From assembly GCA_965216325.1 (NCBI GenBank), contig OZ244160.1, positions 2,496,001-2,560,000 on the forward strand: a DNA stretch of 64,000 nt, in the 5' to 3' direction. Below the pieces are notes generated by a model. The model was not told where the DNA came from, searched no databases, and was given only the letters and a program-made list of their open reading frames with translations. Each line of letters opens with the position of its first letter. Position 1 is the stretch's first letter. Shown in pieces: positions 6,636-58,184 of the stretch. Position numbers and translations under genes: made by a program. Source of the stretch: Coraliomargarita sp. (GTDB lineage: Bacteria > Verrucomicrobiota > Verrucomicrobiia > Opitutales > Coraliomargaritaceae).

Positions 6636-9600
6636 CTACTCGCTCTCGTAAATCAGCTCGCCTTGTTGGATGGCGTTTTGGAGTAGGCTGAGATCATCGA
6701 TGAAGCTATAGTTCTCTTTGTCACCCCAGTTCCAAGTGCGTCCGAGGATGTAATGACGAATCGTGGTGCCTTCTTCGACTGCTGGGATGGTCACTGTGTC
6801 GGATACAGTGCTAATGACTTGAGCTGCCATGTCGCCCTCACGCTCGAGTTTGGAGATGACGACTAGATTGTCGTTTACTTGGTAAATATGGTCGATTTTG
6901 ACGGACCAGCCTGCGTCAGGCGTGTCGATGCGAACCGTGACTTTCTGGGTTTGTGCAGTGCTAGTTGGGAGCGAGGCTGGATTTGCTTCGCCAAAGGAAC
7001 CCGCCATGGCCTTGCTTAGATTCTTGGGGTTGAGGTGTTTCTTGATGGCGGCGTTTACATCTGCGGCCGTGATGCTGTCGAGTTGCTGCGGGTATAGATC
7101 GACGTAGTCAGCGCCCATGCCGCGCTGCACGAAGCTGTGGACTTGCCCCGCGATACTGCCAGTGGTGGACAGTCTCACCATGTAGGATCCTTTGAGGGTT
7201 TGGATTGCAGCTTGGACTTCCTCTTCAGTGACGCCGTTGGCATACCAGTCTTTGAGCACGCTGTCGGTGGCATTGAGTCCATCGTTGAGCATTGCCGGTG
7301 CAAGGCTGACGCCGAGTTGCCAATTGCCTGCAGTCATAATGTCGCCGGTGTGATGGCTGTAGATGCTGTAGGTCAGGCCCCGTTTTTTGCGCACTTCCTG
7401 CATGAGCTTTGAGCTAAAGCTGCCTCCGAGTAGATAGTTGCCGACCATAAACGGTAGATACTCCTCATCGGTGCGTCGTAGTTCGGTGTTGTAACCGTAG
7501 CGGACTGAGACGCTCGGCTTGTCACTGATCCGAATGCGCTCGCTGCGTGCTTCGTTTTCGAGGGCTGCAGGGTGCTCGGCCGGATAATCGACGCCTCCGC
7601 TCCAATCGCCAAATGCGGTTTCAACTGCCGCGCTGAGTTGGTCGAAGTTGATGTCACCGGCAAAGACTAATGTCATCGACTTCGGTCCATAGTGCTCAGT
7701 GTGAAAGGTCCGAATGTCTTCGATTGTAGTCTCATCTAGATCGGCGAGCAATGTCTCGATCTTTTCACTGTAATTGGGGTGGCCGACCGGATAGAGTTGG
7801 CGGCTCAACTCGGCTTCGGCAAGATAGTCCGTGCTCTCCAGTGCTTGGAGTAGGCCGGCTTTCTGGCGTGTTTTGAGTGTTTCTAGCACGTCGGGGTCAA
7901 ATGCTGGCAGGCGCAGTTGCTCAGCCAGTAGGCCCATTACAAGTCCCGCGTCATTGCTGAGGAATTGCCCGGAGAAACTTAGGCTATGCGAGTCGGCTGC
8001 AAAGGTGATTCCCGCGCCGAGGGTGTCGAGTCGTTTGGCGATAGCGAAGCGATCATTGCGCTCGGTTCCCTGGTCAAGCATAGCTGCAGTCAGGCTAGCC
8101 AAGGTCGGAGCATCGGCTGGGCTGAGGCTGTCACCAGCTGCGAAGCTCCCCACAAACGAGACTACGTCGTTGATCGGCACATCGATCGCGATGAGCTCGA
8201 TTCCACCGATCGTAGTGCGCTGCATTTTACTGGCGAAGTCGACTACGGTTGGTGCGCTTGGGCTGAGTTCTGCTGGCGAGGATGGATGGTTTTGTTCGGA
8301 GTCGAAGATCTCGGGGTCGCGAAAATAGTTGGGGCCATGGATGCGCCCGTTGTCGCTGGCCACGGTTGTGTCTTGTGGCACGAACCAGCCGGTGGTGCTG
8401 TTGCGCGGGATAAAGTAGTCTCTCGCGACTCGCTGGATATCTTCGATGGTTACGTTTTGAATGGCCTCTGGAATGGTCACGTAGGTTGTCCAGTCACCCA
8501 TTGCGATGGCTTCGTTGATCTCCGAGGCTATGGCATATGGGCCGTCACGACCATACACGGTGTTGGCTTGAATCACCGATTTTGCTCGGGCGAGTTCGTC
8601 CTGGGAGACGCCGTTTGCGACGACTCTGCCAATTTCGTCCAACATAATCGACTCGGTTTCTTCATGTGTGGCATCGGGCGTCATGTAGGCGGCGAAGAAA
8701 AACAGGCTCGGGTCGCGAAGTTGTGGGGCAAAGGTGTAGGTGGCGCTTGCCTTGCCTTTGTCGTCGAGTGCTCGGTAGAGGCGGCCCGTCTTGTCAGCGC
8801 CGATCATTTGTTGCAGGAGCCAAAGTGCGGCCCAGTCATCGTGCGTGCCGGCCGGCACTTTGTAGGCAATGGCGACCACCCCAACTTGGCCTGGGCGCTC
8901 GATGGTTAGGCGGCGTGCTCCAAGCTGCTCAGGCTCAATCGTTTCTACTTGAGGGATGGGGTTGGGGGAGTTGGGGACTTCGGCATAGTGCTCGATGATC
9001 GCATCCAGTGTGTGGACTTTGTCAAAGCCGCCAATGATGGTCAGGTAGGTGTTTTCTGGCCAATAGAAGATGTCGTAAAATTCGCGCAGTTTCTGCGTAT
9101 TCGTGTTTTCTATATCAGAGAGCCAGCCGATGGTTGGGTGTCCATATGGCTGTGCCATAAAGGCGGTGGCGTAGATTTCTTTGATTAAAGTGCGAATCGG
9201 GTTGTTCTCGCCGCGCTCATATTCGTTGCGGACGACGGTCATTTCAGATGCCAGATCTTCCTCGCGAATGCGTAGGTTGCGCATGCGGTCTGCCTCCAAT
9301 TCAATCGCGAGTGAAACATACTCACTGGGTAGGACGGCATAGTAGTTGGTGCGGTCGAAGTAGGTGGTGGCGTTGGAGCGCGCACCGATTCGCTCCATTT
9401 GGCTGGAGTAATCCGAGCCGTCACTGCTGTTGAAGCGCTCTGTGCCTTTGAACATCATGTGCTCCAAGATATGAGTCGCGCCGGTGGTGCCGGTCACTTC
9501 GTTGCGCGAGCCGACCATATAGGTCACCATGACGCTGGCCACAGGGAGGCACTTGTTGGGAACCAGCAGCACGCGTAGGTTGTTACTCGTCAGCTGATAC

Positions 9601-42412: not shown

Positions 42413-45400
42413 ATGTTTAGCTTATTTTTTATTAAACGACCGATCTTCGCCGCGGTGATCTCCATCGTGATCGTGGTGCTTGGTTTGGTTTCGTTGGTTA
42501 GCTTGCCGATCGCGCGCTATCCAGACCTCGCACCACCGACGATCAACGTTTCTGCAGTCTATCCGGGCGCAGATGCCTTGACTGTGGCGGATACCGTTGC
42601 TGCCACTATTGAGAAGGAGGTCAATGGGGTCGAACAGATGATCTACATGAGTTCCGTCAGTGGTAATGACGGTAGCATGAACTTGACGGTTACTTTTGAG
42701 CCCGGGGTGGATTTGGATACCGCCAATGTCCTGGTGCAGAATCGTGTGTCGCTTGCGGAGCCACGTTTGCCCGAGGAGGTGAAACGAACCGGTGTCTCGG
42801 TGAAAAAGCAGTCAACGGACATCGTGATGTTCATTGGACTGACCTCACCGGATAACACCTATGATGCCGCTTATCTTTCCAATTTCGCTAATCTGCGAAT
42901 TCGCGATGATTTGCTGCGTGTGCCCGGCGTCGGTGACGTGATGGTTTATGGCGTTGGTGAATTTAGTATGCGTGTCTGGCTCGATCCAGATCAGCTTCGA
43001 GTTCGTAATCTGTCAGCTTCGGAAGTCGTCGCTGCAATTCGAGAACAAAACATTCAGGTGGCTGCGGGACGTGTGGGTGCCGCGCCTGCACCGACTGGAA
43101 CAGCCTTCGAGTATGTTCTGAGCGCACATGGCCGATTGGTCGAAGTCGAGGAGTTTGAGGATATCGTGGTGGCAACCAGTCCGGATGGTCGCACGATCCG
43201 AATCAAGGATGTGGGGCGCGTAGAGCTGGGCTCAGACGTATATAACTTTGAGTCCCGCTTGAATGGTGCGGCGGCAGCGACCTTGGCGATCTATCAGATT
43301 CCTGGATCCAACTTGATGGAGGTTGCAGATGGGGTGACCGCAAAGATGACCGAGCTGTCTGCTTCATTTCCGAACGATGTGGCTTACAAGGTTGCCTACG
43401 ACTCCACTTGGGTGGTGGATGCCTCGATTAAGGAGGTCGTGATCACACTTTTCGCCACGCTGATTCTGGTGGTCTTAACGGTTTACTTCTTCTTGCAGAA
43501 CATTCGCATGACTTTGATTCCGACGATCACCATTCCAGTGGCATTGATCGGCACCTTCTCGGTCTTGTTGATGTTGGGCTTCTCGTTGAACATCCTGACG
43601 CTGTTTGGCTTGGTCCTGGTAATTGGTATTGTGGTGGATGACGCGATTCTCGTGGTTGAGAATACGGCGGTCCACTTGGACCGAGGCTTGAGCGGTAAAG
43701 AGGCGGCTGCGGTTTGTATGAAGGAAGTCTCGGGCCCAGTTGTTGCGACGACTTTGGTGCTTTTGGCAGTGTTCGTTCCAACTGCGATGATGTCGGGCAT
43801 CACCGGCACGATGTTCAAGCAGTTTGCGATTACGATTTCGATCGCGACGGTTTTCTCCTCGATCAATGCGCTGACCTTGAGCCCGGCTCTCTGTGGTGTG
43901 TTGCTCAAGCCGGGGCAGGGGGAAGCCAAGGGGCTCTTCAAAGCCTTCAATACGACCGTCGAGAAATCGAATAACTTCTACCAAGGCATTGTTCGCTGGG
44001 CCTTGCGTGGTTCGGTGATCGGCATCTGTGTTTTCGTTGGTATTGTTTATATCTCTGTGAAGGGGATGAGTAGCTTGCCAACTGGTTTCGTTCCACAAGA
44101 GGACGAAGGCTATTGTATGATCAGTGTGCAGCTTCCGGATGGTGCGACACTTGAACGCACACAAGCGGTGATGAAGCAAGTTGAGCAGCTTGTGGCAGAC
44201 ACTGAAGGCACTGTTGATTGCTTGGCAATTTCGGGCTATTCTTTGATCGATGGTGCTGCTGCCGCGAATGCTGGATTTGCGGTGGTTGTCTTTGATCAAT
44301 GGGATGATCGTCCGACACCTGAGCTACACCAGAACGGGCTGATTGTGACCATGCAGGGAAAGCTCAACCAGATTCAGGAAGCCGCGGCCTTTGCCTTCCC
44401 GATGCCCTCGCTTCCAGGCGTGGGGATGACAGGTGGTTTCACCTACATGCTGCAAGACCGTGAAGGCGGTGGTCTCGAGCAGTTGCAAACCGTAGCCGGT
44501 GGCCTGATCCAAGAGGCGAATGCGGATCCAGCTGTCGCAGGTGCACGTACGACTTTCCGCGCGAGCGTTCCGCAGATTTTCGTGGATATTGACCGCGAGC
44601 AAGTGAAGCGCACTGGCACATCGATGACTTCGGTTTTCGATACCTTGCAAGTATATCTGGGCTCTTCCTACGTAAATGACTTCACGCTTTTTGGGCGTGT
44701 GTTCAAAGTGACTGCGCAAGCGGATACGCCCTTCCGCGGTGATCCCGACGACATTAATCGACTGGCTGTTAAGGGTGCGGATGGCCGTATGATTCCATTG
44801 GGAGCGGTGGCTTCACTGGAAGAACGCCTCGGCCCGCAGAATGTGATCCGGTTTAACATGATGCCATCGGTTAAGATCCTCGGCAATCCTGCTCCAGGCT
44901 ACAGTTCGGGGCAGGCGATGAATACCATGGAGCGTTTGTCGATGACGAATATTCCTTCGTCGATGGCATTTGCTTGGTCGGAGTTGTCCTATCAAGAAAA
45001 GCAGGCAGCGTCTGGCTTGGCTGCTGTGTTTGGTTTTGCGGTCTTGATGGTGTACCTCTTGCTTGCTGCGCAGTATGAAAGTTGGACCTTGCCGATCTCA
45101 GTTTGTTTGTCAGTTCCAACTGCGCTGTTTGGTGCGGTCTATGCGGTGAAACTCCGTGGCTTTGAGAACAACGTCTACACACAGATTGGTTTGATCCTGC
45201 TGATCGCGCTTTCGACCAAGACGGCGATTCTATTGACCGAGTTTGCCAGTGTGCAGCGTAAGAAGGGCATGAGTATCTTCGATTCTGCGGTTGAGGCGGT
45301 TAAGTTGCGTTTCCGTGCGGTGTTGATGACTGCCTTCTCTTTCATCCTCGGTGTGATTCCCCTTTTGATCGCATCGGGTGCAGGTGCCGCTTCTCGTCAG

Positions 45401-45565
45401 ATTCTTGGCACTGCGGTGTTTGGTGGCATGGTGGCCGCCACGATCCTCAGTTTGATCGTGGTGCCGATGATGTTCTTCGTGATTCAAAAGTTGGTTGAAA
45501 GCATCCGCGGAGGTGAAGCGGCCGTTGTGGCAGGAGAGCAATCCGAACCGAAGGACAATGTGTAG
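42413..45565 (+). CDS. HAE1-family RND efflux permease
   Basis: FFIKRPIFA, IGIVVDDAILVVEN, LSPALC, LRFRAVLMT. Confidence 0.96.
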   Translation: MFSLFFIKRPIFAAVISIVIVVLGLVSLVSLPIARYPDLAPPTINVSAVYPGADALTVADTVAATIEKEVNGVEQMIYMSSVSGNDGSMNLTVTFEPGVDLDTANVLVQNRVSLAEPRLPEEVKRTGVSVKKQSTDIVMFIGLTSPDNTYDAAYLSNFANLRIRDDLLRVPGVGDVMVYGVGEFSMRVWLDPDQLRVRNLSASEVVAAIREQNIQVAAGRVGAAPAPTGTAFEYVLSAHGRLVEVEEFEDIVVATSPDGRTIRIKDVGRVELGSDVYNFESRLNGAAAATLAIYQIPGSNLMEVADGVTAKMTELSASFPNDVAYKVAYDSTWVVDASIKEVVITLFATLILVVLTVYFFLQNIRMTLIPTITIPVALIGTFSVLLMLGFSLNILTLFGLVLVIGIVVDDAILVVENTAVHLDRGLSGKEAAAVCMKEVSGPVVATTLVLLAVFVPTAMMSGITGTMFKQFAITISIATVFSSINALTLSPALCGVLLKPGQGEAKGLFKAFNTTVEKSNNFYQGIVRWALRGSVIGICVFVGIVYISVKGMSSLPTGFVPQEDEGYCMISVQLPDGATLERTQAVMKQVEQLVADTEGTVDCLAISGYSLIDGAAAANAGFAVVVFDQWDDRPTPELHQNGLIVTMQGKLNQIQEAAAFAFPMPSLPGVGMTGGFTYMLQDREGGGLEQLQTVAGGLIQEANADPAVAGARTTFRASVPQIFVDIDREQVKRTGTSMTSVFDTLQVYLGSSYVNDFTLFGRVFKVTAQADTPFRGDPDDINRLAVKGADGRMIPLGAVASLEERLGPQNVIRFNMMPSVKILGNPAPGYSSGQAMNTMERLSMTNIPSSMAFAWSELSYQEKQAASGLAAVFGFAVLMVYLLLAAQYESWTLPISVCLSVPTALFGAVYAVKLRGFENNVYTQIGLILLIALSTKTAILLTEFASVQRKKGMSIFDSAVEAVKLRFRAVLMTAFSFILGVIPLLIASGAGAASRQILGTAVFGGMVAATILSLIVVPMMFFVIQKLVESIRGGEAAVVAGEQSEPKDNV

Positions 45566-45984: not shown

Positions 45985-46851
45985 TTAATGCTCAGAACTG
46001 ATCTGCGGAATATCAAACACCTGAGATAAGACTCCGAAATTCGTAGTGCCGCGCTCAATGATAATGCGGCTCTGTAGGACGTCATCCAAATAAGACTCTA
46101 CATGGAAGGCCTCATTCATGCCTTCAAGCTTGTGGTAGTCCTTATAGAGTGTTTTACGAATTTTTCCGTCCGCGAATGTCTCGATTCGGGCCAATACATG
46201 CATGGTTGAAGGGGCGACATAGACCTGCATTTCCGCATCTTGCTCGCTTCTCGTAATGTCTACCAGAATGCATTCTTGCTCCTCCCAGATGGCAAGTTCG
46301 AGATGGCTGATCTCTCCTTCACCTAAAAGCAGAGCGCGCATTACCGGCCCGAAGAATTGGGCACTGTCAATCATGGCCTCAGCTTCTTTTTGCTCAAGAA
46401 GCTTAACCTGGGGGTCCTGTCCCGGTGCAGTTACCCGTTGCCACACGTTTTGTCCATTCACACCGAATGACAAGTCATAGTCCTCAAATTCAAAGGTTAG
46501 CAGCGATTTATCGGGGCGCTTTTTTACCGAAACAAATCGTTGTCTTGCTCCTTCGCCTTCCATCCAGCCGGAAACGCGAATTGTTTGCATCTTGTTGAGC
46601 ATTTCCGAACCGCCATTTGCGATTAGATAGGCCTGTTGGAAGTGGGACTTGTCGAGTAAATCGTCTAGAGAGCCGTAGGGTTCTGTCTTTACTTCTGTAC
46701 TTTCCGAATCATCACCAAACCATCCCCAGAGAGCCATACATACGGAAATGGCCAAGGTCACAATCAAAAGGCACAATGCTCCGAATAGTATCTTTTGTAG
46801 GCGTGTCGGACCGAGTGCAACCGGAGTTGTGTTCGTGTATGATTTGGCCAT
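45985..46851 (-). CDS. Membrane-anchored hypothetical protein, possibly LolA-like fold
   Basis: N-terminal TM helix; AYLIANGG...MQTIRVSG and YKDYHKLEGM patterns. Confidence 0.7.
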   Translation of the reverse strand: MAKSYTNTTPVALGPTRLQKILFGALCLLIVTLAISVCMALWGWFGDDSESTEVKTEPYGSLDDLLDKSHFQQAYLIANGGSEMLNKMQTIRVSGWMEGEGARQRFVSVKKRPDKSLLTFEFEDYDLSFGVNGQNVWQRVTAPGQDPQVKLLEQKEAEAMIDSAQFFGPVMRALLLGEGEISHLELAIWEEQECILVDITRSEQDAEMQVYVAPSTMHVLARIETFADGKIRKTLYKDYHKLEGMNEAFHVESYLDDVLQSRIIIERGTTNFGVLSQVFDIPQISSEH

Positions 46852-46943: not shown

Positions 46944-47681
46944 TTACTTGCGACGACGAACCATGACCCATCCAAGGGCAAGGGCACCTGCGATCAGACT
47001 GTAGGTGCTTGATTCTGGAACGGCAGGAGTGTATTCGTAAGTTACAGACGCTGAGAAAGTGCCTGTTGATAGTGCTGATTGCTGACGAAGGACACCGGAA
47101 CCATTTAGGGTGTTGTCTGTGATGGTTGCAGCATAAGCCTTAGCCAGATCAAACTTAACCGTGCCAAGTCCTGTGTAGAGTCCCCAAACCGCTGAATTGA
47201 TCTCGCGGTCTGTTACGCCGTAAGTCTGTTCAGTAGTTGCAAAAGAAGCGTAGTCGCCTTCTCCGGGCTGGACGTCGAAGGTATCAGTTCCCTCGGTGCC
47301 TGTGTCTGGGTCGAGGTTGTATGCGAATGTTTGTGTTGTGTAACTGAAATCTGAAGCGTCCAGCTGGCTAAAACCTGCGTCAGTTGTCAGGTTTCCACCT
47401 TCAAAACCATCTGCACCAAATTCACCGAAATTGTAGTTACCGCTTGCGGTGCCAGTTGCGTCATTGTCGAGCTCAAGAGTTTGAGAAACGACCACATACT
47501 CGATAGTAAGTTTCACTCCAGTCAGTGTTCCCAAGTTAGAGTCGAACTGATTGAGTGTGAGCACGTTTGAGCCCAAGCTCTCAGTGAATTGAAAAGCAAG
47601 AGAATCGTTAAAGGTAACTGTCTCTGCGAAGAGAGCAGCTGGTAGTGCAGCTAGCGCAGCGATTTTAGTCGTAGTATTCAT
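46944..47681 (-). CDS. PEP-CTERM exosortase-target surface protein (choice-of-anchor E-like domain)
   Basis: Signal peptide; QFDSNLGTLTGVKL; Thr/Ser-rich; C-terminus VPESSTYSLIAGALALGWVMVRRRK. Confidence 0.92.
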   Translation of the reverse strand: MNTTTKIAALAALPAALFAETVTFNDSLAFQFTESLGSNVLTLNQFDSNLGTLTGVKLTIEYVVVSQTLELDNDATGTASGNYNFGEFGADGFEGGNLTTDAGFSQLDASDFSYTTQTFAYNLDPDTGTEGTDTFDVQPGEGDYASFATTEQTYGVTDREINSAVWGLYTGLGTVKFDLAKAYAATITDNTLNGSGVLRQQSALSTGTFSASVTYEYTPAVPESSTYSLIAGALALGWVMVRRRK

Positions 47682-48209
47682 TGTTAGTATGTTGAGTTAC
47701 TAAATTATAAGTATGTTGCGTCAGTAAATTAAGGTCGTAGAAGGCAAACCGAGGCTAACCGAGGCAAACATGATGAAATAATTCGTTATGGAAAGAAAAA
47801 ATAATGGGTAGTTTCCCCCTTTTTTTGTCAGTTTGATACACTAGATTAGAGTTGCTTGTGAATAAACCAGCATTAAGCAGTATTCATTCCAGATGGTCGT
47901 TAAGGGCTTTATTTGTTATAAAAATTTAAAATAAATTCGGAGGATACGATTGGAACTGATCAAAATGAGCCATGTTGACTAATCTAAGGCTAATGAACGG
48001 CGGTTTGTGTCTCGCCACTCTTTTCTCAGTATTCCGGCTATCGAATTGTGTGGAGCAACTCGGGAGCGCCCATGAGATGGTTTGGGATCTTTCGGTGGGG
48101 GACTTTCAGGTAAATGAATGGATTTCTCCTGAATGAGAGTATTTGTGATTAAGGGGCATTGACCTTGACCCGCTTAATCGGAATCTCAATTCGAGCAGAG
48201 AACGAGATC

Positions 48210-48953
48210 ATGAATAATCCCTACGAGTCGGACGAGCTGTTACAGCAGTATTTGGTTTTTCATTATGCGACTGCTACGGAGCAGTTTCCCTATCCTTTTG
48301 GTGGAGTCGATGCGCTGGATTTTCCGCAGCGCTGTGTGACGGAGGGGGTTCTTGCGGAGCGGCTACCTGAAGGAGCGCGCGCTTTGGATCTGGGCTGTTC
48401 AGTCGGGCGTTCAAGTTTTGAACTCGCGCGCTACTGCTCGGAAGTGATTGGGATTGATTTCTCGCAGTCTTTCATTGATGCGGCCAGTCGCTTGCAGCAC
48501 GAGGGCACGCATCCAGCAACTCGCTTGGATGAGGGCTCGGCTTCGACGCAACTGTCGGTCGCGGTTGATCCTGAGCTGGATCGTTCACGCGTTACCTTTG
48601 AGCAAGGGGATGCTCAGGCCATACGCGCTGATATTGGTCAGTTTGATGTGGTGATTGCCTGCAATTTGATCTGCCGGTTGCCCGAGCCGATGCGGCTATT
48701 GCAACGCTTGCCGGAATTAGTGAAGCCTGGTGGGCAGTTGTTCATAACCACCCCATTCACTTGGCTGGAGGAATATACGCCCTCGGAGAATTGGTTGGGC
48801 GATGGTGCACAGGATTCTTTTGCAGGTTTACGTGCCGCTTTAGAGCCTGCGTTTGAGTTGGATGCTCAATGGGATATGCCCTTTTTGATCCGTGAGCATG
48901 CCCGTAAGTTTCAGTATAGTATCGCGCAAGGTAGCCGTTGGTTACGTAGCTGA
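48210..48953 (+). CDS. SAM methyltransferase resembling the OvoA C-terminal mercaptohistidine N-methyltransferase
   Basis: NPYESDELLQQYLVFHY, ALDLGCSVGRSSFEL, NLICRL, PFTWLEEYTP, IREHARKFQ. Confidence 0.8.
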   Translation: MNNPYESDELLQQYLVFHYATATEQFPYPFGGVDALDFPQRCVTEGVLAERLPEGARALDLGCSVGRSSFELARYCSEVIGIDFSQSFIDAASRLQHEGTHPATRLDEGSASTQLSVAVDPELDRSRVTFEQGDAQAIRADIGQFDVVIACNLICRLPEPMRLLQRLPELVKPGGQLFITTPFTWLEEYTPSENWLGDGAQDSFAGLRAALEPAFELDAQWDMPFLIREHARKFQYSIAQGSRWLRS

Positions 48954-49163
48954 TTGAGGTTGATCATCCAGTGCTCTTCAATGAACTTAGCAAAGTCTTA
49001 GTTCTCACTTTATTCTGTCTATAGATACTGTAGAATATGAGGGCTGTAGTTCTTTAGATGCAGGCTCACACAACTATGATGCGGATAGCAGCACACTTGG
49101 TTTAGGTATCACTGATTACTTCTAGACTCTCTAGTTGACTTTAGTGAACAAACGCCGCGGTGA

Positions 49164-49868
49164 CTATGCCGTGGCTTCTTTGATATTTCGATATGAGAGG
49201 TATTCCCAATCCATCTTTAGTAGTGCTTCCATTTGATCAGCTACTCGAAGCTGGAGATCGTCTGGATGGATTGAAATTCGGAGCGGTTTTCTGCTTCGAA
49301 TCGCTTTCTTGGTCTGTATACGGTTCCAATGACGGAGAAAGGTTTCTCGCAGGTAGGTGTCAGCCTCGAATCCAGTGAGTGGATAGCTTTCGCGTTCGAT
49401 ACCATTCTCCAGTCGAATCAAACCTCGGGTAGTTTCGATCATCCGATACGGGGCTTGCTGTAAGTGTTCTTTCGAGATGAATCCCAGTGCCCATGCGGGT
49501 GGGACATAGAACTCCGGCTGAGGGAGTTGGTGCTCAATGAACCAAGTGCCTGATTGTATCAGCAAATCCAATACGCCTTGCGAATCAAGGTCCAGGTGCT
49601 CGGCGACATCTCGAGAGATTAGTAGCGAGTGAAGTCGATGGTATAGTTTTCGAGGGGTTGTTTGATGGTGCCAGCCGTGCGCTGCCAGTTGATGCCCTTT
49701 GTCGGCAAGTTCTCGCAGGCGCACGATCTGTTCAGGTGTCCATGCTTTACCTGGGACGACCAGTAAGGTGACGGGGGGCACATTGATGGAGTCTAGCCAG
49801 TCGAGAATCGCTTCGACGCGCGCCATGGTGTCAGGCATGAGGTCGTGTATGCTGACGAGTGCCTTCAT
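49164..49868 (-). CDS. Polysaccharide deacetylase-like protein (DUF2334 type)
   Basis: VSIHD, HGWHH, VPPAW, ISIHPDD. Confidence 0.85.
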   Translation of the reverse strand: MKALVSIHDLMPDTMARVEAILDWLDSINVPPVTLLVVPGKAWTPEQIVRLRELADKGHQLAAHGWHHQTTPRKLYHRLHSLLISRDVAEHLDLDSQGVLDLLIQSGTWFIEHQLPQPEFYVPPAWALGFISKEHLQQAPYRMIETTRGLIRLENGIERESYPLTGFEADTYLRETFLRHWNRIQTKKAIRSRKPLRISIHPDDLQLRVADQMEALLKMDWEYLSYRNIKEATA

Positions 49869-49873
49869 TGACG

Positions 49874-51010
49874 CTATTTTTTCGCGTATTTCGCGAGAAC
49901 ATTGGCCCACTGCAGTACGGTTTCACGATTGAGTTGCTCGGCTGCCTTGCGGCAGATCGCTGCTTTGCGTTGCCACTCTTCAGGAGGGAGTTCCAGCAGG
50001 CGGCGGATTGCTTTGGTCAAGGTATCTTCTGGATTGAGTGCAAAGAGTCCGTCTCTGAGGAGTGGCCAATCGTGAATGCCTGCATTGGCAGACACGAGCG
50101 CGGGGCGTCCACGAGCCATCGCTTCGAGTGCAACTGAGCCGAAGGTTTCTAACTTCGAGGGCAGCAGTAAGAAGCTACCAGAGTCGAGGAGCTCGATGAG
50201 CTCTTCACGGTTGAGCCAACCAGTAAAGCGCACGTTGCGCATGCCCTCGGCGGATGTCTCAAGTTTGTTTCGCAGTGGACCATCGCCACCAATTACAAAT
50301 TCGATTTGCGGGAAATTCGCTGCAGCTTCGATGATGCGATCCACATTTTTCTCTGCAGCGAGTCGGCCTGCGAAAATGATACGCTTGATGGTTCCCGGCG
50401 CTGGCTTGAGTGGCTTCTCGATAAATGCTGCTTGTAGGGGGGTGCCCATCACTTCGACACTCGGCGCACCGAGGTCCTCCACATCCTTTTGCAGATTGGA
50501 GTTGTTGATGAGCACGGTCTTACTGTTTTTACACAGTATCCGGTTTGCTGTGCGCAGGTAGCTGTTGACGATGGTTCGTGAGAATGCGTTCCAGTAAATT
50601 CGAGCGAGTTGCTCGAAGTCAGTGTGGAAGGCCGAGATGAATTGTGCCCCGCTGCGCCTCGCGTGAAACAGCCCAAGTAGGCCAAATGGGCCAGGGGTAA
50701 TCGCGATGACAACATCTGGTTTCAGCTTTTTATAGCCGCGGCCAATTCGAAAAATGTTGGGAGTGACCAAGCGTTGCATCGGGTCACCCGGCATCGGTAA
50801 GGAGAGGATGGGGTTGCCGTTGTGATTTTGTGGCTGAAAGATCTCCAGTGCTTCGACTTCTTTGCCCAATTGCCCTGCCAAATCGTGATAATAAGCGCCC
50901 GTGCCATTGCGTTCTGGTAGGGAGTCTGAGAAAAATGCCACGCGCACGTGTTTGGCGGGTGATGCTGATGTTTGCGGTGCTTCGGGGCTGACTGCAGTGC
51001 TGGTTTCCAT
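49874..51010 (-). CDS. GT4-family glycosyltransferase
   Basis: SDSLPERNG, FHTDF, FAGRLAAEKN, ETFGSVALEAM. Confidence 0.92.
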   Translation of the reverse strand: METSTAVSPEAPQTSASPAKHVRVAFFSDSLPERNGTGAYYHDLAGQLGKEVEALEIFQPQNHNGNPILSLPMPGDPMQRLVTPNIFRIGRGYKKLKPDVVIAITPGPFGLLGLFHARRSGAQFISAFHTDFEQLARIYWNAFSRTIVNSYLRTANRILCKNSKTVLINNSNLQKDVEDLGAPSVEVMGTPLQAAFIEKPLKPAPGTIKRIIFAGRLAAEKNVDRIIEAAANFPQIEFVIGGDGPLRNKLETSAEGMRNVRFTGWLNREELIELLDSGSFLLLPSKLETFGSVALEAMARGRPALVSANAGIHDWPLLRDGLFALNPEDTLTKAIRRLLELPPEEWQRKAAICRKAAEQLNRETVLQWANVLAKYAKK

Positions 51011-51011
51011 A

Positions 51012-52187
51012 CTAAGTCTTTAGGCTACGCGTGATTCGGCAGCGACTCTCCAAAATCGCATCATATGCGCGCTGCAAGCAAACATCGATTTCGCTATTTT
51101 CGCGGTGCTCGCTCTCGGGTTTGTGTTGGTGAGCGCTCTGATGTGGTCCATCGAGGGCGCTCAGTGACACTCGCAGTTGGTCGCTGATTGGAAGCTGCAG
51201 CGTCTTTAGGGTTTGTTTGATCATGCCAGCTGAGTCGGCCTTCAAGTCGGCTTGGTCTAGCACCGCGATCTGATGTGGATCTGCGCTAGCAAGCTGTTCG
51301 TTGAGGTATGGATAGTTGCTGGCAAAGACCTCGCGGAGAAGCTCCTGAGTCGCGCGACCGTCGGGGTCGGTAGCAAATAAAGCACGTGCGCTACTGAGGG
51401 AACTAAGCTGTGAGCTGAGGGCGCTTTGAGGCTCTCGAACGCAGAGCACGAACTGTGCATCGGGAAAATGTTGACGGAGGGCCCCGGTCCATGAGGCGAA
51501 GGCGGCATTTTTCGAGAGAAAGCGCTTATTCGGCGGGCTGCAGTAGAGGTGCTTCTGAATACAGCGCTCGTAAAAGTTGAGGTGTTGCTGCTGGCTGTAG
51601 CCGTTGGCCCTATTGAGCATGCCGACTTGTTTGAGCGATGGAGTAAAGGGGAAGGCTAGGAGCAGGATAAAGCAGCTGCCAATTGGCAGTAGCCAGAGGT
51701 AGTCTTCCTCGGGGATATCGAGGCCGACTTCGTGAATGTCATTGAAATCGCCGGCTTCGGAGGTGATTAGACGGTTGATTGCTTTTCTCCCGAAGCCGCC
51801 GAGGGCTCTGTCGATCGCTCCAAGGGTTCGGAGCACTTTACGCTCGGTAATTGATGGAGCCAGCACGGCTTCCCAGGTGCTGACTGTAGTAAACTCCTCG
51901 GAGTTTTGGGCCAGCATACGGTGGACAAAGGTGGTTCCGCTGCGTGGAATGCCTGAAATAAAAACGGGGGCTTTGATTGCCACTTTTCGATAGCTACGAA
52001 AGAGGCATTCATCGATCAAGAAACCGAACCAGTGAATCACTTGAAAGCCGACAAAGAGTGGGTACGCGATCAGCAATAGCAGCAGACGCTTCAGGCCTAG
52101 GGGGGCACCCGCGTGTTTGCCCGGCCAGAGCGACTGGAGCCACCAAAGGCCATGTCGGCCTAGGCTTTTGATGAACAGTGCGAACAT
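51012..52187 (-). CDS. PAPS-dependent sulfotransferase with hydrophobic N-terminus
   Basis: 5'-PSB loop GIPRSGTT; 3'-PB motif VREPQSALSS; PEED; LSKN. Confidence 0.9.
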   Translation of the reverse strand: MFALFIKSLGRHGLWWLQSLWPGKHAGAPLGLKRLLLLLIAYPLFVGFQVIHWFGFLIDECLFRSYRKVAIKAPVFISGIPRSGTTFVHRMLAQNSEEFTTVSTWEAVLAPSITERKVLRTLGAIDRALGGFGRKAINRLITSEAGDFNDIHEVGLDIPEEDYLWLLPIGSCFILLLAFPFTPSLKQVGMLNRANGYSQQQHLNFYERCIQKHLYCSPPNKRFLSKNAAFASWTGALRQHFPDAQFVLCVREPQSALSSQLSSLSSARALFATDPDGRATQELLREVFASNYPYLNEQLASADPHQIAVLDQADLKADSAGMIKQTLKTLQLPISDQLRVSLSALDGPHQSAHQHKPESEHRENSEIDVCLQRAYDAILESRCRITRSLKT

Positions 52188-52190
52188 GCG

Positions 52191-52658
52191 CTAGCTGTTG
52201 AAGACCAGCTTCTTCGAGAAGAAAAAGTTGACCGACATGCCGACCATTCCACCGACCCAAATGGCCACAATACCAAGTATCAGGCCCGCGAGTGCAATGT
52301 TTCCATCCCAAACCAGTTTTGCCGCATAGCTATGACCCAAGAGTAGAACCAGTTTATACACACCAATGTTCACGGCGGAACCAATGGAGTTTGCGCTGTA
52401 GTGGCGCAGTAAGGATTGCCAGAGTTCGCGGCCCATCTCGACGTGGTGAAAGGTGAAGGCGCGGTTGAGGAAATAGCCAGCGGTTACCGAGGCACCGAGC
52501 GAAATGATCCGGCTCACAATATCGCCCATGCCTAAGGAGGTCAGTAGGCAGCAAATCGCGACGTCGATCAGGAAAATCGTCGCACCAACCATCGCGAAAC
52601 GCGCGAACAGGGCGAATCCGCGTTGCGATTTATGGAATCTGTTGAGGAGTCGTAGCAT
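52191..52658 (-). CDS. GtrA-family membrane protein
   Basis: RFAMVG, YFLNRAFTF, NFFFSKKLVF; four TM helices. Confidence 0.9.
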   Translation of the reverse strand: MLRLLNRFHKSQRGFALFARFAMVGATIFLIDVAICCLLTSLGMGDIVSRIISLGASVTAGYFLNRAFTFHHVEMGRELWQSLLRHYSANSIGSAVNIGVYKLVLLLGHSYAAKLVWDGNIALAGLILGIVAIWVGGMVGMSVNFFFSKKLVFNS

Positions 52659-52740
52659 CGCTAATTGGCCCGCATAAAGCCGTAAAATCGCCAATGCGTC
52701 AAATGCGAATCTTTGAGGGGGAATTGAGCTTTTCCCCTGT

Positions 52741-52820
52741 TCTTACTCTTAATCCTATTCTTAATCTTACTCTATCAGTAGTTGAGATTACGATTATGAG
52801 TAAGATTACGATTAAGAGTA
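52741..52820. repeat. Inverted arrays of degenerate hexamers
   Basis: TCTTAC/TCTTAA-like units (52741-52773) facing GATTAC/GATTAA/GAGTAA-like units (52785-52820). Confidence 0.75.
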
Positions 52821-53642
52821 TTACGAGACCTTGATGCGCTCGTGACGCGAGAAATGCACGGAATTGACCACGCGATCCATGAGTGCAGGGCGCTGCATCG
52901 GCACGCTGACGATTGCTGCTAAAATGTCGGCCAAGACGTGTTCGCGGGCCTCTTGGTCGGGAATGAAGCGCATGCGCACTTCGACCAGTTCTGGGCGTAA
53001 TTCCAGCCACTCGGCTTTGATCTCAAGCACGCGTGGATACTGGCTGATTCGCTCGCAAAGGGCTTTGTTGCTGCGGACATTTGGACATTGGTCCATGCTG
53101 ACGCTGATGGCCTCCAAGCAGTCGCGCTCTTCGCTCGAGAGGGATTCCCAACTGACGCCGCAGAGTTCACAGCGCGCTTCCGCTAGCAGGCGATGCAACT
53201 CGCTTGGTCGCATGCGCATGACGAGTTTGACCCAGCGCATCGGCCATTTTTCAAATTCATAAGCGAGCAGGGCCAAGCGCACGCGCGGTGGAAGTAGCCG
53301 GACTTTGGTCACCATCGGCTCTGGGGAAGTAATCGGGCCATCGCTTGGCGCATTCTCAACCAACGCGCTGGCCAGCATGAACTCGAAGTCCGACAGGCGC
53401 TCCGTGTAGCGCAGGTTACGCCATAGCTCTAGAAAGAGGCGGGTTACTCGGGCGCGGCGCTGTTCGACTGGCTCGGCTAGCGTGCTGCCGTAGTAGGCAT
53501 GTGCGAGATCGATATAGGACGATGTCAGTGCGAGGAACTGCTCGCTGTCTTCGGTCTTCGCGGCTTTGAGCTGTTCGCGTCCGGCTTTGCGGGCGTGGGT
53601 GCTGCCTTTGAGCGCGTTGAAAAAACGTCGAATCGAGCCCAT
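52821..53642 (-). CDS. Hypothetical protein resembling a degenerate ECF sigma factor with C-terminal extension
   Basis: VTRLFLELWRNL (sigma2-like); LLPPRVRLALLAYEFE...LHRLLAEARCEL (sigma4-like). Confidence 0.7.
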   Translation of the reverse strand: MGSIRRFFNALKGSTHARKAGREQLKAAKTEDSEQFLALTSSYIDLAHAYYGSTLAEPVEQRRARVTRLFLELWRNLRYTERLSDFEFMLASALVENAPSDGPITSPEPMVTKVRLLPPRVRLALLAYEFEKWPMRWVKLVMRMRPSELHRLLAEARCELCGVSWESLSSEERDCLEAISVSMDQCPNVRSNKALCERISQYPRVLEIKAEWLELRPELVEVRMRFIPDQEAREHVLADILAAIVSVPMQRPALMDRVVNSVHFSRHERIKVS

Positions 53643-53678: not shown

Positions 53679-54371
53679 CTAGTCCTGATCCTCACTGTCG
53701 GGGCGGTTCTGGCTTTCAATGCGACAGTCTTGCATGACGCGTAGCCAGAGTTCCCGAAGGTCGAACAGGCGAATTCGGATCTCGTGCTGGAAGCTTTCGA
53801 GGAACTCGTGGTTCGGGTGGGTGAGTTGATCAAGGAGGGCTAAAGTTTGGTTCAGAGCGCTCAAGCTGTTCTTGAAGTGGCAAATCGCCAGGCCGAAATC
53901 GCCGAGGTCGAGCGCTTGGATCGAAAGGAGAACATTCATCTCCGCTTGGTGCAGACTCGTTGCATATTTCCAGCAGAGCTGCGCTGGCAGGTCGCTTTGA
54001 CTGTGCACCATGAAATGCTCCCAGCTTTGATGCAGGTAGCGGTAAAGTGAGCGAGTCACCACAAACACCGGATGCTTGTGCAGGGTGTATGGGGCCTCAT
54101 CCATTTCGTTGGCAGGCTCATCTAGGTCGACTTCTACGCTGTTGAATTCGTCGGTCATCGACATGTCCTGCGCGTCCCAGCCCATGAGAGAGGCCACCTC
54201 GTCGAGGTGGTTCGGTTTGTCCTTCAGGCTGTTGTAAATGGACAGGAATCGGGCGGTTTCACGGTCGGAATTCTTCAGGTAATTGCGCCATTGAAATTCG
54301 CCCCAAGCTGGTTCGCTGGGAGTATCGTCCCAGCCGCCGCTTTCTGAATGGTCAAAATTTGGATCGCTCAT
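53679..54371 (-). CDS. Hypothetical protein
   Basis: 230-aa acidic, helical ORF on the same strand as the sigma-like gene. Confidence 0.75.
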   Translation of the reverse strand: MSDPNFDHSESGGWDDTPSEPAWGEFQWRNYLKNSDRETARFLSIYNSLKDKPNHLDEVASLMGWDAQDMSMTDEFNSVEVDLDEPANEMDEAPYTLHKHPVFVVTRSLYRYLHQSWEHFMVHSQSDLPAQLCWKYATSLHQAEMNVLLSIQALDLGDFGLAICHFKNSLSALNQTLALLDQLTHPNHEFLESFQHEIRIRLFDLRELWLRVMQDCRIESQNRPDSEDQD

Positions 54372-54833: not shown

Positions 54834-55727
54834 ATGTCTGAACCTGCGATTCGTATTCAAGGACTGACGAAAGACTTTTCGGTTGGCATGCGCGGCCTGA
54901 AGCTTCGGGCTGTCGACAATCTTAGTCTCGAAGTGGGCGACAACCAGATCTTCGGACTACTCGGGCCGAATGGTTGTGGCAAAAGCACCACCATTAAAAT
55001 CATCTTAGGGTTGCTGCATGCCTCAGTTGGGGAGTGCACGATCTATGGTCAGCCGAGCCATACGGTGAATGCGCGCCGTAGTGTGGGCTTCCTTCCTGAG
55101 GCGCCATATTTTTACCGCTACCTGACTGGGCGCGAACTGGTTCGCTTCTATGCCAAGGTCTGTGGCGTGGCACGCGCTGAAATGAATGAGCGTGTCGATG
55201 AGGTGATTGAACTCGTCGGAATGACCGAGGCCATGAACCGCCGGGTTGGGACGTATTCGAAAGGGATGCTGCAACGCATCGGGCTTGCTCAAGCACTAGT
55301 GCACGATCCACAGCTAGTCATATTGGACGAGCCGACCGCGGGGGTCGACCCGCTGGGCTCGGCCGCGATCGCCGACATAATTCGCGAACTGAAGAAGCGT
55401 GGGAAAACGGTGCTGCTGTCCTCGCACTTACTGGCGCAAATTGAAGGGCTTTGTGACCATGTCGCGATTCTGCATCGCGGCAAACTCGTGCGTGAAGGGC
55501 GGGTTGAAGACATGTTAGAAGATCAGGCTGCGGAATCGTTGGTCGTGGAAGGGCTTTCGGCAGAAGGCCGGGCCGCTGTTGAGAAAGCCATCGCTGTCGA
55601 TGGGGCACAGCTTCGGCGAGTCGAGAAGCCGCGGGTGAGCTTGGATACGCTTTTCCTGAATGAGGTCAATGAGCGCGAAGGTGCACACCAACGGCAGCAA
55701 CCAGGCAGTAAGGGAGGTGACGCATGA
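54834..55727 (+). CDS. ABC-2 type ATP-binding protein
   Basis: GPNGCGKS, YSKGM, ILDEPT, SSHL. Confidence 0.95.
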   Translation: MSEPAIRIQGLTKDFSVGMRGLKLRAVDNLSLEVGDNQIFGLLGPNGCGKSTTIKIILGLLHASVGECTIYGQPSHTVNARRSVGFLPEAPYFYRYLTGRELVRFYAKVCGVARAEMNERVDEVIELVGMTEAMNRRVGTYSKGMLQRIGLAQALVHDPQLVILDEPTAGVDPLGSAAIADIIRELKKRGKTVLLSSHLLAQIEGLCDHVAILHRGKLVREGRVEDMLEDQAAESLVVEGLSAEGRAAVEKAIAVDGAQLRRVEKPRVSLDTLFLNEVNEREGAHQRQQPGSKGGDA

Positions 55728-56551
55728 TCGGTCGCATTTATTGCATTGCTGCAAACACCTTTCTGGAGGCAGTTCGTCAGAAGTTCTTTAATTCACTGCT
55801 CCTAATTTCGATCGCATTGGTGCTATCGGCCAACTTCTTTCAGCAGTTTGATTTCGGCACCAGTGAATTGAAGTTTATCACCGACTTCGGTTTTGGTGCC
55901 TTGTTTTTCTTTGGTTCGATTTTGGCGATTACTGCGACTACCCAGTTGTTCTTCAATGAAATCGAAAACCGCACGGCACTGACGATGCTGGCAAAGCCGG
56001 TCTATAAACTCGAGTTCCTCGCAGGGAAATTCTTTGGTGCACAGCTGTTGATGCTGGTGTTCGCAGTTGTGCTCTCTGTGGTGTTGGCGGGGATTCTATG
56101 GTGGCGCGAGGCTGCCATTGTGATTCAATATGCCGATCAATTGCATGATCATGCAGGCTTGGTTCGCTACAGTGATATTTTTATCTTTGCTCTACTTCAA
56201 TGGATGAAGTTCGGTGTGATTTGCGCCATCTCGTTGTTCATCGGAAGCTTTTCGAACACCAACTTGTATACAATTATTGTATCGTTCTTCGTGCTGATCA
56301 TTTGCCAGCTACAATACATCGCACGCGATGCGTATATGGATATGGAACAAGGCCCCCTTCGCTGGTTGGTGAGTTTGCTGGCACTGGTGTTCCCGAACTT
56401 TCAATTGTTCAATGTCGGCGACCAGTTGGTTTACATCGAGCACGCCGGGCTTTCGTCATCGACTGTGTTGCAGATCGTCGGTTATGCAGCGATCTATGCG
56501 GTGGTCTTCCTCTTGTTGGCCCTGCTCAATTTCCGTAAACGCGAGATCTAG
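55724..56551 (+). CDS. ABC-2 type permease
   Basis: IAANTFLEAVR, EIENRT...LAKPV...FLAGKF; multiple TM helices; ATGA overlap with the ATPase gene. Confidence 0.9.
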   Translation: MIGRIYCIAANTFLEAVRQKFFNSLLLISIALVLSANFFQQFDFGTSELKFITDFGFGALFFFGSILAITATTQLFFNEIENRTALTMLAKPVYKLEFLAGKFFGAQLLMLVFAVVLSVVLAGILWWREAAIVIQYADQLHDHAGLVRYSDIFIFALLQWMKFGVICAISLFIGSFSNTNLYTIIVSFFVLIICQLQYIARDAYMDMEQGPLRWLVSLLALVFPNFQLFNVGDQLVYIEHAGLSSSTVLQIVGYAAIYAVVFLLLALLNFRKREI

Positions 56552-57365: not shown

Positions 57366-58184
57366 ATGCCACGTAATCGCCAAGCCCAAGCCCGTTTTGA
57401 GATGGAGCTGCGCCACCGTATGAATGCGGGCCGAGTCGCGGTGCAGAATCAGATCGCGTTTTTCGAGCGTCAATTCGGGCAAGTCGACAGTGAGTGGAAG
57501 GAAGACGACACACGTGTCACGTTTGCAGACTTCGCGATTTCGGAAAAGCTGTTCAGCGAGCTGCGTCGCGATTTCCCCAAAGACGATTTTTGTAGCGAAG
57601 AAAGCAATCCTCTGGATGAAGTGATGCAATTGAACGCAGCCTTTGCCTGGGTGGTGGACCCCATTGATGGGACCAACAACTATGCGCTTGGCGTGCCCGT
57701 TTGCGCGATTTCGGTCGCCTTGCTGCATGAAGGGGAGCCGGTTTACGGTTTTCTCTACGACCACAGCACCCGTTCTTTGCTAGAAGGGGGGCCAAACCAT
57801 GGTGTGTTGCGCGACCGCAAGAAGCTGAATCGTGATCAGCTGGCTGCTGATGCACAGACCATGATAGGTCTTCATTTTCCGATGAAGCGTGAGCAGTTAG
57901 CGCCGTTACAGCCCTTGCTTGAGAAGTATCGGGTGCGCTCGCTGGGGAGTGCGGCTTTGACCATCGCTTATGTTGCCACTGGCTACTTGACCGGAGCGGT
58001 GGATCATCGGGTTAGAGTTTGGGATATCGCCGCGGCCTATGCACTTTGTCTGGGAGCGGGGCTGGAGTTTAAGTTTTTCGGCGAATCGCCATTTCCGCTG
58101 AAAGAGTTCCATCCGAAGGCACCATGTATACCGTTTTATACGGGAACGAGTGCCTTTTGCGAAGAGTTGGAAGCAGTTCTGTAG
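57366..58184 (+). CDS. Inositol monophosphatase-family protein
   Basis: SEE, WVVDPIDGTNNY, WDIAAA. Confidence 0.93.
   Translation: MPRNRQAQARFEMELRHRMNAGRVAVQNQIAFFERQFGQVDSEWKEDDTRVTFADFAISEKLFSELRRDFPKDDFCSEESNPLDEVMQLNAAFAWVVDPIDGTNNYALGVPVCAISVALLHEGEPVYGFLYDHSTRSLLEGGPNHGVLRDRKKLNRDQLAADAQTMIGLHFPMKREQLAPLQPLLEKYRVRSLGSAALTIAYVATGYLTGAVDHRVRVWDIAAAYALCLGAGLEFKFFGESPFPLKEFHPKAPCIPFYTGTSAFCEELEAVL

Follow-up and report, generated by a model that had tools for sequence, protein, structure and literature searches.

Locus, linkage and distribution

The window analyzed here, a stretch of 64,000 nucleotides (nt) from Coraliomargarita sp. (contig OZ244160.1 of assembly GCA_965216325.1, positions 2,496,001 to 2,560,000), contains on its minus strand a cassette of four tightly packed genes, about 3.5 kb in total, which form one functional unit and which would, on balance, serve to build a sulfated amino-sugar glycolipid. 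The first gene of the operon encodes a GtrA-family protein (52658..52191) of 155 amino acids (aa) from its ATG, or of 167 aa if an alternative TTG start at 52694 is used. It is followed by a gene for a sulfotransferase, hereafter ST (52187..51012, 391 aa), a gene for a glycosyltransferase of family GT4 (51010..49874, 378 aa) and a gene for a deacetylase-like protein, hereafter DAC (49868..49164, 234 aa), the chosen ATG of which agrees with the starts of its homologues. The three spacers read cgc (3 nt), t (1 nt) and cgtca (5 nt), and the four-gene layout given by the original prediction is exact according to the open reading frames (ORFs) and the spacer reading. Its four family assignments were borne out as well, by Pfam for all four proteins and by Foldseek for ST and DAC. 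The downstream border of the operon is a convergent methyltransferase gene (48159..48953, plus strand).

One genome per species (185,579 species) was scanned with an ST alignment, which led to 276 encoding stretches, and the best 80 of these are the loci analyzed in our work. ST, GT4 and DAC are colinear on one strand in all 67 loci that extend at least 2300 nt after ST, and these belong to three phyla. A GtrA homologue (hidden Markov model E-value ≤ 1e-3) is located directly 5' of ST in 57 of the 75 loci with at least 520 nt upstream and elsewhere in the locus in one case (L068), while the remaining 17 have none. The upstream neighbours in these 17 are mutually unrelated, comprising an NTP-transferase, alpha/beta-hydrolases, DUF1329, a Na/H exchanger, an electron transfer flavoprotein and a SulP permease. 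The co-conservation check proposed with the original prediction was therefore passed by ST, GT4 and DAC, GtrA being a frequent but not an obligatory companion. When all ORFs from the 80 loci were clustered, four clusters proved to be widely shared, namely ST, GT4, DAC and GtrA. The next largest is present in only 12 loci, hence there is no fifth conserved member, and a search of the 80 loci for such a partner, be it an acyltransferase, a transferase like ArnT or genes for PAPS (3'-phosphoadenosine 5'-phosphosulfate), found none.

Additionally, ST and GT4 are fused into one ORF in four genomes, of one verrucomicrobium and three Gammaproteobacteria. These are a 748 aa protein from a verrucomicrobium of the window's own family (L090:1292-3538, minus strand), an 824 aa protein from a gammaproteobacterium (L092:783-3257, plus strand), a fusion in Halothiobacillus (L091:2227-4500, minus strand; the same place as L047) and one in Halofilum (L069, about 7001-9274), where both genes share one frame uninterrupted by a stop. 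Pfam recognized Sulfotransfer_3 followed by two GT4 domains in the fusions of L090, L092 and L091/L047.

Linkage was also seen when whole genomes were considered. Among 301 Verrucomicrobiota genomes, ST was found at E ≤ 1e-20 in 21, with 13 of the 20 genomes of the window's own family being positive versus 0 of 27 in a neighbouring family. In 20 of the 21, the contig with ST also has a strong DAC match (E < 1e-40) no more than about 3 kb away; in the lone positive genome without DAC (G066), ST is distant (35% identity) and sits where a contig begins. Eight further genomes of this sample gave only weak DUF2334 matches (26-32% identity; DUF2334 is the Pfam family of DAC) and have no ST, and no genome of the 301 has a strong DAC without ST. 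Concerning Gammaproteobacteria, an ST-profile match at E ≤ 1e-30 was detected in 16 of 350 genomes, 11 of which have the cassette DAC close by; it should be noted that the centre genome of this sample (G301) was picked for carrying the cassette, and that leaving out one unpublished genome (G601) gives 15 of 349 with 10 cassette carriers. The other five are the weakest of the 16 matches (170-216 bits), and the four that were tested have no DAC (G627 was outside the test), indicating that the ST family reaches slightly beyond the cassette. Strict linkage together with the ST-GT4 fusions rules out a chance neighbourhood, and the claim of the original prediction that the set works as a unit stands. 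That these genes are accidental neighbours in unrelated processes is hardly conceivable against 67 of 67 colinear loci over three phyla, four gene fusions and a DAC clade never met without ST in the genome samples, the Verrucomicrobiota sample having it solely beside ST.

At least 711 relatives of ST were obtained at E ≤ 1e-3 from 8000 scored candidates. The closest named ones belong to Coraliomargarita and other Opitutales, and relatives with 43-47% identity to Halomonas and Thiohalophilus. Judged by record title, the best 80 loci comprise about 46 Verrucomicrobiota, 32 Pseudomonadota and 2 Spirochaetota. The Pseudomonadota are represented by Halomonas, Aidingimonas, Vreelandella, Aquisalimonas, Arhodomonas, Halofilum, Thioalkalivibrio, Ectothiorhodospiraceae, Halothiobacillus, Algiphilus, Chromatocurvus, Porticoccus, Alteromonadaceae, Salinisphaerales, Oceanococcus and one member of Blastochloridaceae. 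The names of the carriers, with marine Verrucomicrobiota and many halophilic Gammaproteobacteria among them, suggest a bias to marine and halophilic taxa. In the GT4 tree, which is unrooted and many rows of which are metagenome bins, the spirochaete falls within a clade of Ectothiorhodospiraceae, Porticoccus groups as the sister of Oceanipulchritudo and Puniceicoccaceae (support 100/99) and a Halieaceae/Alteromonadaceae clade is found inside a Verrucomicrobiota-dominated group. The cassette thus appears to be self-contained and horizontally mobile across phyla, and its transfer between phyla points to an acceptor already available in each recipient.

Predicted enzymes and their relatives

The ST contains the Sulfotransfer_3 domain (PF13469, 78.9 bits with a cut-off of 27) and matches PF00685 with 25 bits. 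Its best match among Protein Data Bank (PDB) sequences by phmmer was Stf1 (2zq5, E = 9.8e-8). The AlphaFold2 model, built on 55 sequences, has a mean predicted local distance difference test value (pLDDT) of 90.8, and Foldseek retrieved the same protein first (E = 9.9e-10, TM-score 0.61), as well as Stf9 (2z6v, E = 1.1e-7), tyrosylprotein sulfotransferases and others. Pfam score, fold and the residues of the PAPS-binding loop place ST in the Sulfotransfer_3 family and the Stf1-Stf9 class. Residues G79, P81-R82-S83-G84-T85-T86, R251 and S259 are invariant, the first ones forming a P-loop-like GxPRSGTT motif; we take the loop P81-T86 and the pair R251/S259 to correspond to the motifs binding the 5'-phosphosulfate (5'-PSB) and the 3'-phosphate (3'-PB), respectively. 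H152 and E160-E161-D162-Y163 are also invariant. ST is consequently a predicted PAPS-dependent enzyme with intact catalytic motifs. The hydropathy scan revealed hydrophobic sequence near the N-terminus (about residues 28-58) and again at residues 161-185, so that ST is anchored in the membrane through a conserved N-terminal transmembrane helix. This long helix holds the invariant residues R34, P43, Q49, H52 and D59, polar and other, which suggests that the membrane part is functional.

The mycobacterial Stf1 and Stf9 share with ST the Pfam family and the PAPS-binding loop and are its best sequence and fold matches, yet identity is 15-18% at a TM-score of 0.61, and ST differs by its extra pair of N-terminal membrane helices and its conserved hydrophobic insert. 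We know of no GT4 or DAC partners for Stf1 or Stf9. The likeness to NDST, the N-deacetylase/N-sulfotransferase of heparan sulfate, is one of logic alone, as in both cases de-N-acetylation of N-acetylglucosamine (GlcNAc) would be coupled to PAPS-dependent sulfation of the freed amine, a parallel reflected in the strict linkage of the DAC and ST genes. ST is not a member of the NDST family, NDST1 (8ccy) appearing only at rank 36 of the fold matches (E = 1.4e-2, TMq 0.28), and NDST acts on a polymer whereas the substrate of the cassette would be a lipid-linked monosaccharide. The genome also carries a gene for adenosine 5'-phosphosulfate kinase (187 bits), therefore PAPS can be made. In two Halomonas loci, both without GtrA, a SulP sulfate permease gene lies divergent beside the cassette (H. 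halmophila, L045:4874-6520, minus strand; H. almeriensis, L060:965-2104, minus strand).

For the other two enzymes, the closest characterized system is gpgSDF of Pseudomonas aeruginosa, described in 2025 as a pathway for glucosaminyl-phosphatidylglycerol (PMC12713373). In this pathway, GpgS, a GT4 enzyme, makes GlcNAc-phosphatidylglycerol (GlcNAc-PG), GpgD (COG3233/DUF2334) deacetylates it to glucosaminyl (GlcN)-PG and GpgF (UPF0104) is the proposed flippase (PMC12713373). Its authors compare the pathway to hexSDF of Clostridioides difficile (PMC12713373), which makes aminohexosyl-hexosyl-diradylglycerol and accumulates an N-acetylhexosamine (HexNAc)-lipid intermediate without its deacetylase; according to the article on it, HexS has the annotation of a monogalactosyldiacylglycerol-synthase type enzyme and HexD that of a polysaccharide deacetylase, while HexF is MprF-like (PMC10128005). 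In both gpgSDF and the cassette a GT4 gene is directly followed by a DUF2334 deacetylase gene (8 true gpgSD loci; 67 of 67 cassette loci), the enzymes are soluble without signal peptides and the operon includes a membrane protein, in gpgSDF the proposed flippase. The best NCBIfam matches of the cassette GT4 and DAC are precisely the two gpgSDF enzymes, at 50.5 bits for GT4 on the GlcNAc-PG synthase model (NF053787, cut-off 480; 49.9 bits in the genome search) and 62.1 bits for DAC on the GlcNAc-PG deacetylase model (NF053788, cut-off 280). For comparison, in the Gammaproteobacteria sample the true GpgD genes of 10 genomes reach 292-366 bits and that of one more 245, the cassette DACs of the same sample score 43-74 bits, and no genome of the 351 searched contains a true GpgD together with the ST cassette. 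Moreover, the operon has no UPF0104/MprF-like GpgF, its sole membrane protein besides the anchored ST being GtrA (PF04138). There is no sulfotransferase in gpgSDF, whereas in the cassette ST is added and obligatory. The hexSDF system resembles the cassette in its logic of synthase, deacetylase and flippase for an amino-sugar glycolipid, a likeness drawn from its published description, and it likewise lacks a sulfotransferase. The cassette therefore shares the adjacency of synthase and deacetylase with gpgSDF but is not orthologous to it, as judged by the profile scores. These systems, which the original prediction had not named, nevertheless offer a direct characterized precedent for its scheme of HexNAc-lipid synthesis, deacetylation and flipping.

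The GT4 protein belongs clearly to its family (PF00534, 88.2 bits; PF13439, 38.7 bits). Residues E288-x7-E296, R216 and K221 are invariant in 38 sequences, and the E-x7-E motif is typical of retaining GT4 enzymes. No segment reaches a Kyte-Doolittle 19-residue mean of 1.5, and neither a transmembrane helix nor a signal peptide is evident. It is thus a soluble retaining enzyme of the GT-B type, and we presume it to transfer HexNAc to a membrane lipid. A look-up in the ESM Atlas returned generic GT4 clusters only, with no hint about the acceptor. Its other family relations bear on two alternatives. The GT4 family includes lipopolysaccharide (LPS)-core transferases, WaaG/RfaG (2iv7) is among the PDB sequence matches, NCBIfam models of LPS and exopolysaccharide GT4 enzymes match weakly and all carrier phyla are diderm by name; the cassette might accordingly decorate LPS (lipid A-core) or a lipid-linked primer of a surface polysaccharide, with GT4 adding GlcNAc to a core or primer sugar at the cytoplasmic face, deacetylation and sulfation following and the general machinery taking over export. 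We regard this as unlikely, since no polymerase, Wzx/Wzy, ABC exporter or further glycosyltransferase is co-conserved, core structures vary by phylum while the cassette moves among phyla, and the ST membrane helix and the usual GtrA would suit a small lipid substrate better. The second alternative follows from weak matches to the MshA and BshA models (26 and 35.9 bits) and from the mostly marine or halophilic names of the carriers, in whose habitats compatible solutes matter. According to it, the product would be a soluble sulfated glucosaminyl osmolyte or cofactor, built like the precursors of mycothiol and bacillithiol and subsequently sulfated. The conserved transmembrane helix of ST and the membrane nature of GtrA speak against it, and MshB and BshB are members of the LmbE family. 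DAC by contrast is a DUF2334/CE4 protein (CE4, carbohydrate esterase family 4), of which the sole characterized member known to us acts on a lipid (PMC12713373), and overall we hold a soluble product to be very improbable.

DAC was assigned to DUF2334 (PF10096, 54.1 bits with a cut-off of 26) and is the sole gene of this family in the genome, giving the single NF053788 match. On the polysaccharide deacetylase family PF01522 it stays under the gathering score (20.8 versus 23.1 bits), and by that measure it would not count as a CE4 member. Its AlphaFold2 model (pLDDT 93.8) nevertheless has 34 PDB matches at E ≤ 1e-3 in Foldseek, and those listed are almost all CE4-type deacetylases and esterases. 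They include the acetylxylan esterases 7ax7 (E = 7.2e-7) and 2c71, a mycobacterial putative deacetylase (3rxz), PdaC (6h8l) and chitin deacetylases. Residues H8-D9, H64-G65-W66-x-H68, H201 and D204 are invariant in 37 sequences, a set which presumably represents the Asp-His-His metal site and the catalytic His of CE4 enzymes. DAC thus appears, from its model, to have a CE4 (NodB-like) fold with a predicted metal site. As with GT4, no segment reaches a 19-residue mean of 1.5 and no signal peptide or transmembrane helix is evident, in line with the remark of the original prediction on signal peptides, so that DAC is probably cytoplasmic. GtrA, on the other hand, is polytopic, with hydrophobic segments at 13-53 and 113-148, and matches PF04138 over its entire profile (positions 1-117 of 117, 62.7 bits with a cut-off of 26.1, E = 4.7e-17). 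We presume it to be an accessory member acting as lipid-binding or flippase subunit.

These last two proteins allow a further explanation, similar to the Arn and Lgm routes, in which an amino sugar is made on polyprenyl phosphate, deacetylated, sulfated and flipped by GtrA in order to become a periplasmic donor for lipid A, glycans or proteins. GtrA-family proteins are known to act with undecaprenyl- or decaprenyl-phosphate sugars, and ArnD (8t0j), a CE4 enzyme working on an undecaprenyl-phosphate sugar, stands at rank 27 of the DAC fold matches. However, the transferase of such routes is of family GT2 and the cassette has a GT4, no GT-C or ArnT-like periplasmic transferase or other fifth gene is co-conserved, and GtrA itself is lacking in 17 of the 75 loci. 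We therefore consider this explanation distinctly improbable. A complex prediction of ST (residues 62-391) with GT4 and DAC gave a score of 0.00, a 'no answer' which bears on neither side.

Proposed pathway

Taken as a glycolipid pathway, the cassette would operate on the cytoplasmic face of the inner membrane, and that it builds a sulfated amino-sugar glycolipid there seems to us somewhat probable. In a first step, the soluble GT4 would attach a HexNAc, which is most likely GlcNAc donated by UDP-GlcNAc, to a membrane lipid of ubiquitous occurrence, which could be phosphatidylglycerol as for GpgS or diacylglycerol. The DUF2334/CE4 enzyme DAC would then strip the N-acetyl group. Next, with PAPS as the sulfate donor, the membrane-anchored ST would modify the amino sugar at the new amine, like NDST, or at a hydroxyl, the latter leading to a zwitterionic head group. 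Finally, GtrA, where present, may bind the product or flip it to the outer leaflet. A lipid substrate is favoured by the conserved membrane helix and hydrophobic insert of ST, by the presence of GtrA in most loci and by the fact that the only characterized relative of DAC known to us acts on a lipid (PMC12713373). A lone glycosyltransferase, with genes for neither polymer synthesis nor export, would fit a monosaccharide head group. The strict coupling of DAC and ST would be explained most simply if the freed amine accepted the sulfate, although a zwitterionic GlcN-O-sulfate head group would equally need both enzymes. The role of such a lipid may be the tuning of membrane charge in saline or marine, possibly phosphate-poor, habitats.

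A more specific version of this pathway can be put forward only tentatively, and we think it rather doubtful. It would be NDST-like chemistry performed on a lipid, where a GlcNAc-lipid is de-N-acetylated and N-sulfated to an N-sulfoglucosaminyl glycerolipid, with ST and GT4 as one membrane-bound unit, the whole being an adaptation of membrane charge to salt or phosphate scarcity, spread horizontally among marine and halophilic bacteria.

Several points weigh against the glycolipid pathway or against one of its steps. Compared with the eight true gpgSD loci, the cassette GT4 is 23-27% and DAC 24-28% identical, and DAC stays far below the cut-off of the GpgD model. Nor is the GT4 specially GpgS-like, because two other GT4 genes of the same genome (G000:C1:201516-202610, L081, and G000:C1:1207619-1208728, L082) outscore it on the GpgS model, with 131 and 130 bits, respectively; neither of the two has a DUF2334 partner anywhere in the genome. 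The resemblance to lipid glycosyltransferases claimed in the original prediction is accordingly weak, at 50.5 bits where the cut-off is 480 and two genomic GT4 genes reach about 130. CE4 enzymes can act on O-acetyl groups as well, and the fold matches of DAC are headed by acetylxylan esterases. The flippase step has to contend with the loci devoid of GtrA, and characterized GtrA-family proteins are tied to polyprenyl-phosphate sugars, not to glycerolipids. With regard to N-sulfation, known Stf-type enzymes are O-sulfotransferases. Transcription of the operon is indicated by a weak hint, as one RNA library (X20) yielded two short contigs at a depth of about 2, within GT4 (50559-50726) and GtrA (52436-52622), and runs X21 and X22 yielded none. 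Lastly, all chemistry of the pathway is inferred from its genes, which applies to donor sugar and lipid acceptor, to the sequence of reactions, to the position of the sulfate and to flipping by GtrA, as well as to its physiological role.

Surroundings of the operon and significance

Upstream of GtrA, an AT-rich intergenic region of 162 nt with repeats (52659..52820) is the presumed promoter or operator region. It has a G+C-rich hairpin at 52716-52738 and, in the AT-rich stretch 52741-52820, a tandem pair of 18-nt direct repeats together with an imperfect inverted repeat of 29 nt (83% complementarity). Repeats and hairpin may act as an operator, or else terminate the gene upstream. A sigma-70 scan of the minus strand upstream of GtrA found no promoter-like site, counts being not above those of shuffled sequence. 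A 30-kb contig of a close relative from an algae metagenome spans 49100-52721 with 99 differences and departs from the window upstream of 52721, which is the upstream edge of the operon. The stretch is also present in sequencing runs of isolates of one organism and in metagenomes from algae, seawater, estuaries and other aquatic sources.

The two ORFs further upstream (52821-53642 and 53679-54371, both on the minus strand, 273 and 230 aa) are without a match in Pfam or NCBIfam, and among the related loci they are confined to L001 and L002, the two closest ones from Coraliomargarita, which places them outside the cassette. On the other side, the convergent gene at 48159-48953 (plus strand) encodes a stand-alone methyltransferase matching the C-terminal domain of OvoA (TIGR04345, 195.6 bits with a cut-off of 170). 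Of the 80 related loci, 10 have a homologue that likewise converges on the cassette from this position, each of these loci being from Verrucomicrobiota, and no link to the cassette is evident. At 5 kb from the operon, an inositol-monophosphatase family protein is encoded at 57366-58184 (plus strand; PF00459, 121.5 bits). The models of HisN, SuhB and CysQ match it weakly, each far under its cut-off (CysQ 63 and 50 bits), and it could be, by family, a candidate phosphatase of 3'-phosphoadenosine 5'-phosphate. Other neighbours are a PEP-CTERM sorting-signal protein with a weak choice-of-anchor E domain (46944-47681, minus strand; TIGR02595, 19.9 bits with a cut-off of 16), the adjoining ORF 45985-46851 without family assignment, an AcrB-type efflux pump of the resistance-nodulation-division family (42413-45565, plus strand; PF00873, 1066.6 bits) and an ABC-2 transporter pair (54834-56551, plus strand).

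Concerning novelty, no description of the gene set or of its product was found in the open-access full-text literature and bioRxiv, subscription literature lying outside this scope, which agrees with the statement of the original prediction that no characterized pathway has this four-gene set. Two papers that came up were set aside: PMC10040529, which mentions both sulfotransferase and GtrA in connection with halotolerance but whose gene clusters are unrelated, and PMC3597751, where DUF2334 merely appears in a table. The amino-glycolipid module of synthase, deacetylase and flippase is already known, and what is new in the cassette is the obligatory, sometimes fused, membrane sulfotransferase. 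Cultured carriers include Coraliomargarita akajimensis, Halomonas halmophila NBRC 15537, Aidingimonas halophila DSM 19219, Chromatocurvus halotolerans DSM 23344 and Vreelandella aquamarina, and these, along with the 3.5-kb size of the cassette, make the prediction directly testable.

If the proposed pathway is true, a sulfated glucosamine would be new head-group chemistry for bacterial membrane lipids, and a function would be gained for a clade of DUF2334 as well as for an uncharacterized family of Stf-type sulfotransferases. Should the product be the N-sulfoglucosaminyl glycerolipid, it would represent a new class of strongly anionic membrane lipids, free of phosphorus if built on diacylglycerol. 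Whichever form it takes, the sulfated lipid could matter for salt adaptation, for the phosphorus economy of marine bacteria, for resistance to cationic compounds and for use as a lipid biomarker.

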